Shown: positions 2,763-14,757, numbered from the stretch's first letter. The stretch is DNA of 32,000 nt from Geobacter sulfurreducens PCA (GCF_000007985.2 NC_002939.5:2850001-2882000); one strand, 5' to 3'. Program-made: numbers and translations. The notes: generated by a model not told the origin, from the sequence alone.

Positions 2763-2909
2763 ACGGGAATGTCCCTGCCCCCTCATAAGCATCCCCAGCC
2801 CCCTGAAGGAGGAGCGGGAGCCTTACACTGCCGGTTTTACCGGCAAAAGTGAGGCTCTAAACGCTGAGAATGTGTTCTTTTGGGCCAAATCTACTGCAGC
2901 TTCAGGTTG

Positions 2910-3356
2910 TTAGCTTGGTCCGACCCCACACCCCGCCTTTGCATAGGCTTTCTGGTAACCGCTTCCAATTACCTGACCTTTGTGGTGGTATATGGCCCCC
3001 CTTGTGATGTAACCCCGGCACATGATTCCTCGCACCAACAGCTCAATAACAGCTCCCCAGCAATGGCTTATTAAGTTGATGACACCTGCTGGGGACACCT
3101 CCGAGGACACAATCACACAATCAGAAATCTGCGTCAGTTCAAAATTAAGGTTCTTTTGAATGAATCTGCTCTCTGGGCAGGTCCGGGCTCCATAACGGTC
3201 AAAGATTTCCTTGTCCTCTTGCTTCCCGAGTTTCGATAGACATTCCATTAACTCAGGTAATGCCATTCCAAGACCGGATTCGGATGCTTCAACCATGCTC
3301 TTGAATCCCAGTACATCTACAAATGCTATAAATTTGTCCTCATATTTCATGATCAC
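2910..3356 (-). CDS. palm-domain nucleotide cyclase-like protein (class III cyclase / GGDEF-type fold), probably 3'-truncated
   Basis: 148-aa ORF. FIAFVDVLGFKSMV resembles the first metal-Asp strand (xFxDIxGFT), ISDCVIVSS the second Asp strand, and MCRGYITRGAIYHHKGQVIGSGYQKAY the hRxGIxxGxh...hxGxxhxxA segment. The domain stops about 10 aa later in a GC-rich tail (KAGCGVGPS) at the island edge. Confidence 0.5.
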   Translation of the reverse strand: MIMKYEDKFIAFVDVLGFKSMVEASESGLGMALPELMECLSKLGKQEDKEIFDRYGARTCPESRFIQKNLNFELTQISDCVIVSSEVSPAGVINLISHCWGAVIELLVRGIMCRGYITRGAIYHHKGQVIGSGYQKAYAKAGCGVGPS

Positions 3357-3376
3357 TCTCTTTATTATTTTCTACT

Positions 3377-3437
3377 GCACAACGTGTATGAGGCGCACCC
3401 GCCGCGTTAGCGGTCGGCGTGCCGCCGAGAGTTATGT
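3377..3437 (-). other. integron attC site (61 bp)
   Basis: Minus strand: ACATAAC-tctc-GGCGGCACGCCGACCGC-taac-GCGGCGGGTGCGCC-tcatacac-GTTGTGC. The stem has three bulged bases on the 5' arm. R'' ACATAA is the exact reverse complement of TTATGT, which starts this cassette at 4344. Confidence 0.7.
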
Positions 3438-3598
3438 GCTAACGCATTGGGGGATATATGCGGCTTGTCAGCTTCAAGTATTTCGCTTTTTTGTTCGGTG
3501 GCGCAGTAAAGCCGCTTTCATTTTATGCAAAAGGTGGAGGATTATGGTTACTCCGTTTTGGTAGTTTTTATACTAAAGCGGCCCCTTCTGACTTTGGT

Positions 3599-4318
3599 TC
3601 ATGTGTGGATAAAAGTCTTAGCCAAAGGGGAAGGCGGTTGTAATTGCAGTTGGTTTTCTAAAGTTGCTGGAATATTTTCGTCTGCCATTTCTTTTAGGGC
3701 GTCTAGGTATGCTTGTTTGGCTGTTTGTGCGGTTATGATTTGAAATCCATAGTTGTCTGACGCTATTTGCATTGCTTTTACTGCCTCATCTATATGTCGG
3801 CCTTTAGCAACCAAGTGGTAGAAAGTTGCATATGCAACAGCAGTTTCAGGCCATTCCGGTTCAGCTGGGTGTCCAATTACAGCAAAGAAAGGCGCTTCAG
3901 TGTCATCAATATTCATAGCCATTCGGCAAGCAGCGACACCGCTACAACACGACATGCAAATTAACAGATTGCCTTTAAGCGCCTCACTAAGCGGGGTCAA
4001 AATTTCTTTCAACTCCGCCCATGTAATTTGCTCTCCGTTTGAAAGCTGTATTCCTTCGGGGAAACCATGAGCACTTATGTGTAAAACTGGTGCTCGGTCA
4101 TCATAGCTTTTGATTACCTGTGGCAGGTCGTGAGTTAGTGCGAAAACAAATGCATCTTTTGATATGGCACACCGTACAGAACATGGAATGCCGTTAAGAT
4201 TTACGGCTTGTTGGATTAATGATCCCTCTGACCTCCCGAAATAAATATCTCTGTCAGATGGTGATTCAATAATATTAACGTAGAACTTTATCGCCTCGTT
4301 ATTATTTTCCTGGGTCAT
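3599..4318 (-). CDS. minimal caspase/CHAT-like protein (His-Cys dyad), paralog A
   Basis: 239-aa ORF with RBS GAAAGGA 7 nt upstream. Alternating strand/helix pattern with PVLHISAHG (His after a hydrophobic strand) and NLLICMSCCSG (Cys after the next hydrophobic strand) about 40 aa apart, as in caspase-hemoglobinase fold proteases. Clearly alignable with 10486..11175. Confidence 0.55.
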   Translation of the reverse strand: MTQENNNEAIKFYVNIIESPSDRDIYFGRSEGSLIQQAVNLNGIPCSVRCAISKDAFVFALTHDLPQVIKSYDDRAPVLHISAHGFPEGIQLSNGEQITWAELKEILTPLSEALKGNLLICMSCCSGVAACRMAMNIDDTEAPFFAVIGHPAEPEWPETAVAYATFYHLVAKGRHIDEAVKAMQIASDNYGFQIITAQTAKQAYLDALKEMADENIPATLENQLQLQPPSPLAKTFIHT

Positions 4319-4338
4319 ATTTGATCCTTTCTCGATTC

Positions 4339-12977: not shown

Positions 12978-13007
12978 TTTAGGTCTCTCACGTCTTCGAG
13001 TGTCGAT

Positions 13008-13091
13008 TCACTTAAATCTTTTGTTTATAGAGTCGGCATCAGGCCACATGTATCCGCCATTCAGAAGGCAGAGCACATACCTCTCCGTTAG
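13008..13091 (-). pseudogene. displaced 3' end of the lipoprotein gene interrupted by the IS5-family element
   Basis: Removing 13092-14410 and one TTAG copy continues the 14747 frame as ...INLTERYVLCLLNGGYMWPDADSINKRFK to a TGA at 13010-13008. That stop is 30 nt upstream of the next ATG (12977). Confidence 0.6.
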
Positions 13092-14410
13092 CAGGCTGTT
13101 GAAAATCGGCCCCATTTGACTTGCTGAACTTTGCAGTTCGTTTTTTTTTGAATCAGTTTTGTTGCTCAGAACCTTTGTTTCTCGTTCTTTTTGCTCTTTA
13201 TCAACCTCATATACTGCTGATGTAGCCTGGTTTTCCCCTCTCAGGTGACACCGAGACCCAGGTTTTTCATCCGAACCAGGTTGTAGGCCGCAGCGTGCAG
13301 ATCAAGTTGCATGGCGATCTTCTCGATTCCCCGGTACATCGTCTTGCGTAAGCTGCCCACGGTCTTCATCCAGCCAAAGCCTTCTTCGATTCGTTTCCTG
13401 ATCTTCTGGCTGATGGTGTAGTTCGGATGCTTGGTGGTTCTGCCGTCGATGGCCGATTTCCTGTTGGAGGTGTTCTGGGCCACGTGTGGCGTTATCTTTA
13501 GCCTACGCAGCTCTTTGACGAATGATTCTGTGTCGTAGCCTTTGTCGCAGCCAAGAGTGATCCGTCGGGTCGTCCTTGGCAATTGCTGCACCATGGCCTT
13601 TGCTGCGTCGCGCTCACCGCAACCGGTTGCCGTTGTCACCTTGGTCCTGATGATGAGGCCACTACGATTCTCCATCAGGGTATGTCCCTGGTAGCAGAGC
13701 TTGGCTTCCTTGTTCTTCCCCTTGCGGTAGAGCCGGGCATCAGGGTCAGTGGTGGAACCATGGGTTTCGTTGGTAAGTTTCTGTCCCTTGAAATCCACGG
13801 TATCGTTTCTGCCGCCACCACCGGCTGAAGGAGGTCCATCCTTGGGCTTGAAGCTCTTGATGGAAGCCCAGGCTTCGATGAGAGTTCCGTCAACGGTGAA
13901 GTGTTCGCGGGACAACAGTCGCTTACGCTCTGCCTGGGCCAGAACCCGGGAAAGAAACTCGGCGGCAACTTCGGAGCCAATCAATCGGTCACTGTTCTTG
14001 GTAAAGCTGGAATGATCCCAGACTTTCTCGTCCAAGCCCATGCCGAGGAACCAGCGGAACAGGAAGTTGTAATGGATCTGCTCTACCAACTGCCGGTTGC
14101 TGCGGATGGAGTAGAGGATCATCAGCAGTTGGGCTTTCAAGAGCTTCTCCGGTGGGATTGAGGAGCGGCCGGTTGTGGCGTACATGCTGTCAAAGAGCTT
14201 GTCCATCCCTGCCAGGGCTTCGTCGGCCATTTTACGGATGGCCCGCAAGGGGTGGTCCTTCGGGACAAAGGATTCAGGTGTCACATAGGTAAAGAGAGCT
14301 TCTGTGTTGCTGTCAAAGCCGCGCATAACTTTCCTCAATAATTGTAGAGCGTTATGCGCGACAATGTACCACAAATAGGCTGTTTTCTCTATTTCAATTT
14401 CAACAGCCTG
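13092..14410 (-). mobile_element. IS5 family insertion sequence (1319 bp)
   Basis: Inverted repeats CAGGCTGTTGAAAAT (13092-13106, + strand) and CAGGCTGTTGAAATT (14410-14396, - strand), resembling IS903-type GGCTTTGTTGAA ends. A 4-bp direct duplication TTAG at 13088-13091 and 14411-14414 fits the YTAR target of IS5-group elements. Confidence 0.85.
13241..14326 (-). CDS. IS5 family DDE transposase
   Basis: Track ORF 13241..14374 trimmed to ATG 14326 (MRGFDSNTEALF...). Has an InsH-type N-terminal domain (IPPEKLLKAQLLMILYSIRSNRQLVEQIHYNFLFRWFLG) and a C-terminal DDE region (LGCDKGYD...). Confidence 0.9.
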   Translation of the reverse strand: MRGFDSNTEALFTYVTPESFVPKDHPLRAIRKMADEALAGMDKLFDSMYATTGRSSIPPEKLLKAQLLMILYSIRSNRQLVEQIHYNFLFRWFLGMGLDEKVWDHSSFTKNSDRLIGSEVAAEFLSRVLAQAERKRLLSREHFTVDGTLIEAWASIKSFKPKDGPPSAGGGGRNDTVDFKGQKLTNETHGSTTDPDARLYRKGKNKEAKLCYQGHTLMENRSGLIIRTKVTTATGCGERDAAKAMVQQLPRTTRRITLGCDKGYDTESFVKELRRLKITPHVAQNTSNRKSAIDGRTTKHPNYTISQKIRKRIEEGFGWMKTVGSLRKTMYRGIEKIAMQLDLHAAAYNLVRMKNLGLGVT

Positions 14411-14747
14411 TTAGGTTTATCTTGTATTTATCTGAAATCGTAAAAATTGTTTTCGCCTCACTGATGTAGCCGTCAACATCTTCTACGGGCCTAGGCCCGC
14501 TTAAAGACCCCCACCAGAGAAAATATTTGACGTCATTGCCGTTGAAGAGAGCCTTTTCTTCGTCTGTTATTGGAGCCACTCCTAATGATAGTTCAGATTT
14601 TGCGCTGGATAGGCATTTCCATTCCATGCCTCTCGGTATCTTAGAGTTTGGTTGCTTAACCAAGTACAAATGTGTGGCATCACAACTAGGCAACATAAGA
14701 AATGATGCGAATATCAATATGCCAAATTGTATTCGGTGCATTTTCAT
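14400..14747 (-). pseudogene. small lipoprotein gene, C-terminally truncated by the IS5-family insertion (native part 14411-14747)
   Basis: MKMHRIQFGILIFASFLMLPSCDATH is a signal peptide plus lipobox LPS|C. The last codons and the stop (..GC*) are supplied by the IS inverted repeat. ATG 14741 is an alternative start. Confidence 0.65.
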
Positions 14748-14750
14748 CCT

Positions 14751-14757
14751 TCTCAAC
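14751..14757 (-). other. integron core site R' (GTTGAGA) opening the first visible cassette
   Basis: GTTRRR-type heptamer 3 nt upstream of ATG 14747. TTGAGA is complemented exactly by R'' TCTCAAC at 12301-12295. IS110-family copy 2 abuts it. Confidence 0.55.

Follow-up and report, generated by a model that had tools for sequence, protein, structure and literature searches.

What is the low-GC island that separates lpd from a gene for a GT41/TPR glycosyltransferase in the chromosome of Geobacter sulfurreducens PCA, and how could it have been assembled? We examined it in a window of 32,000 nucleotides (NC_002939.5, 2850001-2882000), by which we mean the whole of that stretch; coordinates are those of the window unless an accession or a contig (L numbers) is named. 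A first-pass annotation had read the island as an integron cassette array without an integrase. Our analysis supports that reading – through the boundary rule that the cassettes follow, the homology of their attC sites to those of Geobacter metallireducens, matches to a profile built from sites outside the window, and the failure to find an integron-integrase gene (intI) – and leaves us highly confident that positions 2925-16438 (minus strand) are an integron cassette array with no intI nearby, that is, a group of clustered attC sites without integron-integrases (CALIN). By definition such a cluster has two or more attC sites grouped on one strand and no intI close to them; here five lie within 9 kb.

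Cassette boundaries and attC sites

An attC site consists of two heptamers, R'' (RYYYAAC) and R' (GTTRRRY), enclosing an imperfect palindrome of about 55-140 nt. Cassettes are bounded at G|TT, and R'' is complementary to the TTRRRY at the start of its own cassette. All eleven heptamers listed in the first-pass annotation (five R'' and six R') were found on the minus strand exactly where it had placed them (Table 1). They delimit five sites of 59-74 nt in which AAC and GTT are invariant, the outer positions following RYYYAAC and GTTRRRY only loosely, as had been said of them. Six cassettes result, five complete and one truncated: each starts at the TT of a GTT, and the complete ones end with their own Geobacter-type attC. 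The ORF (open reading frame) map agrees with the earlier statement that all genes at 2.9-14.8 kb other than those of insertion sequences (IS) lie on the minus strand.

The boundary rule provides a first line of evidence. Each R'' was scored against every R', which allows 720 assignments with a mean of 23.3 out of 35. Paired with the R' upstream of its own cassette, the five R'' match at 7, 7, 6, 7 and 7 of 7 positions, giving 34/35; pairing the R'' and R' of one and the same site gives only 23/35. The true order is alone among the 720 in reaching 34/35, and the possibility raised with the original annotation – that the complementarity might be no better than for randomly paired junctions – falls away. 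This is the signature expected of cutting and joining at G|TT, and it is far from chance. The rule is repeated in strain KN400 (6, 7, 7, 7 and 7 of 7) and in CP074693 (7 and 7 of 7), and is obeyed also on contigs L152, L155 and L174 and in G. metallireducens.

A second line of evidence comes from an integron that does have its integrase. In G. metallireducens GS-15 the intI gene (CP000148.1 3165949-3167298; L191 10001-11350; 449 amino acids, aa) is oriented away from a cassette array, the first and second attC sites of which we call M1 and M2. Sites A, C and D share 79-82% identity over their full length, and about 90% in the core, with the attC sites beside this gene; for all five window sites, full-length identity to the best external partner is 75-82%. 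Site E has an L box (GGCGGCAC/GTGCGCC) and an R' identical to those of the KN400 site K1, with 75% identity overall. Given the homology to M1 and M2 of an intI-linked array, the window palindromes belong to the attC families of a canonical, integrase-linked Geobacter integron. As the first-pass annotation had proposed, an IS (5628-7022) divides site C in two. With the IS removed it aligns without a break, end to end and at 82% identity, with the intact M2, which validates the reconstruction.

Thirdly, we built a profile hidden Markov model from 12 attC sites of G. metallireducens, KN400, CP074693, L152, L155 and L174, none of them from the window. A sequence profile was chosen because a MAFFT alignment of the Geobacter sites was structurally too inconsistent for a second covariance model to set beside the one described below. 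This external profile recovered 4/4 intact window sites (A, E, B and D; E 3.7e-7 to 2.9e-3, all on the minus strand), the next-best match in the window having E 1.4. It found no match in the core flanks and nothing at E <1.6 in 1.36 Mb of unrelated genomes.

The sites share an architecture: R'' (7 nt), a spacer of 4-5 nt, an L'' that carries extra bases, the loop, L', a second spacer of 7-9 nt and R' (7 nt). For folding, bottom strands were rebuilt with the cassette's own R', as in the excised circle, and compared with shuffled sequence. The rebuilt strands form an R box of 7 bp, a spacer that is unpaired and asymmetric, an L stem whose bulged bases lie on the L'' side, where the first-pass annotation had seen them, and a loop. 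The folds of A, B and E are far better than those of shuffles (z -4.9, -3.75 and -3.9). In the metagenome-assembled genome GCA_003488685.1 a 90-bp insertion lies within attC E (L004 12110-12186, corresponding to window 3403-3417); most likely the palindrome was misassembled, and similar small discrepancies occur elsewhere in that assembly (L001).

The integrase and the attI-like junction

A complete integron has intI – a tyrosine recombinase with an IntI-specific insertion – within about 4 kb of its cassettes, and the PCA array lies beside no such gene. The first-pass annotation had seen no tyrosine recombinase in the window, and Pfam scans of the main ORFs likewise gave none; tblastn, with IntI1 and the IntI of G. 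metallireducens as queries, gave no match at E <=1 across the window and its flanking loci, which reach about 10 kb to either side. Nor is there an intI at the locus in any strain examined.

Integron integrases do occur elsewhere in Geobacter. On contig L174 a divergent gene (~1508-2884) matches TIGR02249, 'integron integrase', with 354 bits (cut-off 265). Its product shares 41% identity with IntI1, and the named proteins most closely related to it are integron integrases from G. hydrogenophilus and G. metallireducens. As to G. sulfurreducens itself, the species is reported to have a chromosomal integron (PMC9229058), and a group IIC-attC intron has been described in an integron (intron-encoded protein NP_953517; PMC3001079). 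The protein matches listed for IntI1 all have at least 74% identity and do not reach a G. sulfurreducens intI; those listed for the L174 IntI all have at least 79%, and none is named G. sulfurreducens. By a calibration of accession numbers on gene-accession pairs, the group IIC-attC intron would lie near GSU2471, some 120 genes from the window. The arrangement described for group IIC-attC introns is matched by a class 1 integron control from a Raoultella plasmid, in which a group II intron reverse transcriptase gene (L119 4198-5547) lies between cassettes on the opposite strand.

Two further features of the Geobacter integrons were observed. Their integrases, at about 450 aa, consist of an IntI core and an N-terminal extension of about 120 aa that is absent from IntI1. 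A small conserved ORF with a KPGQKGT...YRYD motif and a weak DUF5710 match lies between intI and attI (L191 9480-9863 and L174 1015-1539, both minus strand); both intI-linked Geobacter integrons have it, and the integrase-less arrays are without it.

The second component of an integron, the attI site, has left a trace. The heptamers mark the array as the first-pass annotation had it, but its start lies further out and takes in an attI-like remnant of 46 nt at 16393-16438. KN400 has the region intact: four (T)CCTATATAGG-type repeats are followed there by AAACC..AATAACGA, and in the strains free of IS an A, then G|TT and the first cassette, come directly after the attI-like sequence. The region upstream of the first cassette is conserved also in CP074693/AM-1 and on L152, L155 and L174, metagenome contigs with the region having been retrieved by a DNA pattern taken from the KN400 upstream sequence. 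On L174 it sits between the cassette and the divergent intI, and over 116 nt of that stretch identity to the attI-like repeat region is 87%. Among PCA, L111, KN400, L174, L152 and L155 similarity stops at the GTT, beyond which there are six different first cassettes. A conserved upstream sequence that ends at GTT before differing cassettes is the behaviour expected of an attI. A search of the intact KN400 region for a sigma-70-like promoter found none.

What lies beyond this junction differs between strains. In KN400 (CP002031.1) an array free of IS inside occupies the space between lpd and the 85-aa ORF that is conserved beside the GT41/TPR gene. Its cassettes encode a 316-aa protein, HEPN_AbiU2, DUF6896, DUF3644 with a 152-aa protein, and Sel1, none of them in common with PCA. 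Between the 85-aa ORF and the first cassette are 350 non-coding bp in which no IntI-like remnant was found. A large HD-CE/HATPase cassette, together with one for HicAB, is found in CP074693.1 and AM-1, where R'' and upstream R' again match perfectly. The cassettes of PCA, KN400 and CP074693/AM-1 are thus entirely different, and in all of them one attI-like sequence is joined at GTT. Different cassettes on one conserved junction show that cassettes were exchanged at the locus after these strains diverged. A second integrase-less locus exists in another taxon: the related metagenome contigs L152 (2740-2843) and L155 (4602-4707) have these attI-type repeats and a cassette chain beside rdgC, obg and proB, with no intI.

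At its other end the PCA array stops abruptly. Cassette 6 is joined at 2924 to the core sequence GTCGGACCAAGC..., and the core junction is identical in KN400 and CP074693. The downstream ends of the three arrays meet one core point, GTCGGACCAAGCTAACAACC (window 2905-2924, minus strand; L122 ~9620; L125 ~11620). PCA has a truncated cyclase-like cassette at that point, KN400 an IS1111 remnant and CP074693 a short ORF. A terminal attC at this boundary (AGCTAAC...GTTTAGA) was considered and rejected on reading the sequence, as it does not fit the attC architecture.

Several points weigh against the reading of this locus as an integron array. Seven attC sites of class 1, taken from plasmid integrons, were used to train a covariance model, which recovers these training sites and three untrained class 1 sites (37-56 bits) and scores all five window sites below 4 bits. 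That negative is real, but the model is too narrow to decide the attC question: the spacers of the window sites measure 4-5 and 7-9 nt, those of the class 1 sites used 5 and 5-6 nt, and in the linear array the R'' and R' of Geobacter sites are poorly complementary. The model also misses the KN400 sites, and it returned nothing for a class 1 integron's NUDIX cassette, where an attC could not be placed by eye either. Sites C (z -1.9) and D (z -1.1) fold no better than shuffles. Structural scans for AAC...GTT plus a hairpin recovered, in two versions, the known class 1 sites together with A, B and E; they are loose and unspecific, with about one false match per 20-30 kb, and at such a rate they are of no use as evidence. 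Searches of loci and proteins located no intI in the G. sulfurreducens genome, and for its existence we lean on the two reports cited above. Finally, it is position and conservation that lead us to call the upstream region attI-like, and recombination at this locus is something we infer from established integron biochemistry.

Supply in trans, decay and other origins

How could cassettes have been moved at a locus without an integrase? The reactions would be those of established integron biochemistry: an IntI of the Geobacter clade would have recombined folded attC bottom strands at G|TT, and the cassettes would have been inserted at the attI-like site of which the last 46 nt survive. The integrase would either have come in trans from another place in the genome or have been lost earlier. 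The arrangement in KN400 and on L152/L155 leads us to prefer slightly an integrase acting in trans from an intI elsewhere.

A fuller version of this idea, which we put forward tentatively and with somewhat less than even confidence, is that the locus is a second, integrase-less platform. It would consist of an orphan attI – four palindromic CCTATATAGG-type repeats and AATAACGA|GTT – and form a fixed site that an IntI encoded elsewhere would load and unload in trans. Two observations suggest it: strains hold entirely different cassette sets at the site, and a module of attI and array without intI is found also at rdgC-obg in another taxon.

That a complete chromosomal integron once stood here and later lost intI by deletion, the array being a decayed integron and not a platform served in trans, is possible but in our view rather doubtful. 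A truncated IS5, with deletions of differing extent, occupies precisely the place expected for intI in PCA, AM-1 and CP074693, and Cury et al. list intI loss and rearrangement among the routes to a CALIN (PMC4889954). KN400, however, has no IS there, and its intact 350-bp non-coding stretch holds no remnant resembling IntI or the 127-aa ORF that lies between intI and attI in G. metallireducens; cassette content is wholly different between strains all of which are without intI at the locus; and L152 and L155 share the integrase-less arrangement at another chromosomal locus.

Whether served in trans or decayed, the platform in PCA is now crippled and the array heavily degraded. The IS5 remnant removes most of the attI-like region and IS1111 copy 2 parts the rest from cassette 1, while the second IS1111 splits attC C and an IS5 and an IS21 break two cassette genes. 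With its insertion site destroyed, the array could at most still lose cassettes, through attC x attC excision by an IntI acting in trans.

A conventional genomic island or prophage remnant, integrated near tRNA-Leu by a phage-type integrase and later filled with IS, would account for the low GC, the numerous IS elements and the proximity of tRNA-Leu (19798-19884). It is nevertheless a highly improbable explanation: the conserved GT41/TPR gene and the 85-aa ORF stand between the island and the tRNA; neither an integrase nor phage genes nor a direct repeat of the tRNA end was found; and the strains differ in modules, each of them a cassette, with junctions at GTT. Least credible of all, and to our minds close to negligible, is that the palindromes are ordinary intergenic hairpins (terminators or repeats like the repetitive extragenic palindromes) with a coincidental heptamer pattern, for although they are GC-rich, directly follow stop codons, go unrecognized by the class 1 model and include two sites that fold like shuffles, their complementarity order is uniquely the best of 720 and is repeated in about a dozen further cassettes, they are homologous to elements of an intI-linked array, the profile that finds them finds nothing in the window's core DNA, the flanks or 1.36 Mb of other genomes, and no T-run follows the hairpins.

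Cargo, insertion sequences and known systems

Table 1. Features of the array and its flanks (window coordinates; z, folding score against shuffled sequence; percentages are identities)
Feature	Position	Strand	Remarks
attC A (74 nt)	12228..12301	-	external profile match 12300-12228, E 3.7e-7; M1 91.5%/47 nt, E 1e-10; z -4.9
attC B (59 nt)	11200..11258	-	external profile match 11258-11200, E 1.3e-3; 74-76% to CP074693 and L155 attC sites; z -3.75
attC C, split	R'' GTCCAAC 7024..7030; L''/loop/L'/R' GTTGGAA 5572..5627	-	M2 88.6%/44 nt, E 3e-4; z -1.9
attC D (65 nt)	4339..4403	-	external profile match 4403-4339, E 2.9e-3; M2 92.5%/40 nt, E 2e-11; z -1.1
attC E (61 nt)	3377..3437	-	external profile match 3434-3377, E 8e-6; z -3.9
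R'' heptamers	TCTCAAC 12301-12295; CCTTAAC 11258-11252; GTCCAAC 7030-7024; TTCCAAC 4403-4397; ACATAAC 3437-3431	-	
R' heptamers	GTTGAGA 14757-14751; GTTAAGG 12234-12228; GTTGAAC 11206-11200; GTTGGAA 5578-5572; GTTATGT 4345-4339; GTTGTGC 3383-3377	-	
R' GTTGAGA	14751..14757	-	joins attI-like site to cassette 1
attI-like remnant (46 nt)	16393..16438	-	TGATATAGGAAGCAAATTTCTTATATGGGAAAACCTACTAATAACG; last part of the region kept in PCA
Cassette 1	12234..14756	-	lipoprotein-like ORF 14400-14756 (136 aa when intact); ORF 12303-12977 (224 aa, putative lipoprotein)
Cassette 2	11206..12233	-	ORF 11253-12221, 322 aa, LprI/DUF1311 C-terminal domain
Cassette 3	5578..11205	-	two genes: caspase/CHAT-like ORF 10486-11175 (229 aa), then TIR-domain gene
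Cassette 4	4345..5577	-	ORF 4444-5550, 368 aa, Mrr-type restriction endonuclease domain; Pfam Mrr_cat E 4e-10
Cassette 5	3383..4344	-	ORF 3599-4318, 239 aa, caspase/CHAT-like
Cassette 6, truncated	2925..3382	-	ORF 2910-3350, 146 aa; source name guanylate-cyclase-domain protein; no attC after it
IS1111-family copy 1	5628..7022	+	about 250-bp internal deletion, defective; 1 nt from R'' of attC C
IS21-family element (istA, istB)	8274-10250		splits TIR gene of cassette 3; absent from L013
IS5-family element	~13092-14409		splits first ORF of cassette 1; absent from L013
IS1111-family (IS110 superfamily) copy 2	14759..16392	-	transposase 15260-16351; Pfam DEDD_Tnp_IS110 (PF01548) and Transposase_20 (PF02371)
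IS5-family element, truncated	16439..17222, right end approximate	+	DUF772-type transposase fragment; ORF 16533-17381
Left flank		+	marR, lpd
Right flank			conserved 79/85-aa ORF; GT41/TPR glycosyltransferase gene 17892-19649; tRNA-Leu 19798-19884; rpsA

The array has been described as carrying unknown or conflict-type cargo. The conflict-type description holds for four or five of its eight genes: TIR, Mrr, the two caspase/CHAT-like genes and the fragment that its source names cyclase-like. The label 'conflict-type' does not suit the two lipoproteins or the LprI-domain protein. The TIR gene of cassette 3 would encode 475 aa when intact (P0008); its halves lie at 10240-10408 and 7015-8273, Pfam TIR_2 is found on both, and PADLOC matches the protein to PDC-S66 and to ThsB-like TIR. 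The Mrr protein has a weak PADLOC match to mREase_IV. The 239-aa and 229-aa caspase/CHAT-like proteins appear as distant paralogues, 22% identical and sharing His and Cys motifs. For about half of the cargo proteins a conflict reading is plausible from their predicted domains, and the TIR, Mrr and caspase/CHAT cargo may be said to fit, not to prove, a role in defence. In KN400 the DUF3644 cassette protein (L122 11089-12174, minus strand) matches the PADLOC candidate family PDC-S19 (E 2e-144), and HEPN_AbiU2 is in a neighbouring cassette. An Rfam search gave no match within the array.

Five IS insertions lie in the array and disrupt two cassette genes. Logan contig L013 carries both genes uninterrupted, the lipoprotein-like ORF of cassette 1 (IS-free, 136 aa) and the TIR gene. 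IS1111 copy 2 is placed between the attI-like remnant and the A+GTTGAGA, 1 nt from the lone GTT; in L111 the junction is without this copy and AACG|AGTTG is uninterrupted. The truncated IS5 cuts into the attI-like region and, in PCA, into the 85-aa ORF; at the matching place the remnant is shorter in L110 and L111, and KN400 has none.

The two IS1111 copies are 79% identical, with subterminal repeats GTAAGGCCCC/GGGGCCTTA (given for copy 2). Known members of this family, ISKpn4 and ISPst6 among them, insert into attC sites at one end (PMC11187229). With that IS1111-attC group (ISKpn4, ISPst6, ISPa25; PMC11187229) the PCA elements share a DEDD transposase (PF01548 and PF02371), subterminal inverted repeats, a long non-coding region 3' of tnp, and insertion at one attC end 1 nt from the GTT-containing core. 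Unlike the group, one PCA copy is at the attI-like junction and not in an attC, and the PCA transposase is only about 38% identical to the best listed IS110-family transposase of a Pseudomonas plasmid. By their predicted features both PCA elements would be counted in the attC-targeting IS1111 family. The transposase is single-copy in the sequence collection searched, and its relatives on Pseudoalteromonas and Vibrio plasmids have no obvious integron context.

The class of element is already known: it is the CALIN of Cury et al. (2016; IntegronFinder, PMC4889954). The PCA array resembles it in its five attC sites, which share a strand and each follow a cassette; in lacking intI within 4 or 10 kb; in its small size, the average CALIN having five attC sites (PMC4889954); in cargo other than antibiotic resistance; and in the presence of IS. 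It differs in that it keeps a recognizable attI-like junction, is fixed in the chromosome while its cassette content is wholly strain-dependent, and has attC sites that a covariance model trained on class 1 sites misses. With the G. metallireducens GS-15 integron (L191) it shares homologous attC families (A with M1, C and D with M2), the attC architecture and the cassette-boundary rule, cargo of unknown function, and an attI or attI-like region ending AATAA(Y)GA|GTT after four TATATA-centred repeats. G. metallireducens has the 449-aa intI and the conserved 127-aa ORF between intI and attI, whereas the PCA array has neither, and its attI repeats differ in sequence from those of the PCA type. 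Sedentary chromosomal integrons have been presented as anti-phage stores (bioRxiv 10.1101/2024.07.02.601686); the TIR, nuclease and caspase-like cassettes of PCA and the KN400 cassette that matches PDC-S19 are in keeping with them. Those integrons have hundreds of cassettes, whereas the PCA array has six, no integrase and two genes disrupted by IS.

What is new is accordingly modest: a retained attI-like site, cassettes that turn over from strain to strain with no integrase at the locus, and attC sites unseen by the class 1 model. The array nonetheless belongs to a well-studied model organism, and no description of it was found in the literature searched. Geobacter-type attC sites can escape a model trained on class 1, so that such arrays may be under-counted. 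The servicing of CALINs in trans has so far been mostly speculation (PMC4889954), and full cassette replacement at a conserved attI-like junction without a local integrase offers a concrete case in which to test it. The TIR, caspase-like and Mrr cassettes add candidates for integron-borne defence genes.

The source of the window is not in doubt: its proteins are exact matches to G. sulfurreducens PCA entries (lpd AAR35961, GT41/TPR AAR35973 and the cassette proteins). CP078092.1, which a genome announcement gives as strain PCA (PMC10868280), is identical to the window save for one additional IS21 copy, inserted at window ~15267-15271 inside IS1111 copy 2; IS21 has therefore moved between two PCA assemblies. 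GC content is 0.40-0.47 over most of 3-17 kb, the IS elements being GC-richer, and 0.63-0.70 from 17.5 kb on. The locus is bounded by lpd on one side and by the GT41/TPR gene with the 85-aa ORF on the other; these flanking genes are common to the species, and the cassette proteins are essentially strain-specific. The GT41/TPR protein family is widespread, with matches of at most 49% identity from the genome-contig scan. In every strain compared, the 85-aa ORF beside that gene (17221-17460, minus strand) is the final conserved gene ahead of the attI-like region; the IS5 remnant shortens it to 79 aa in PCA.

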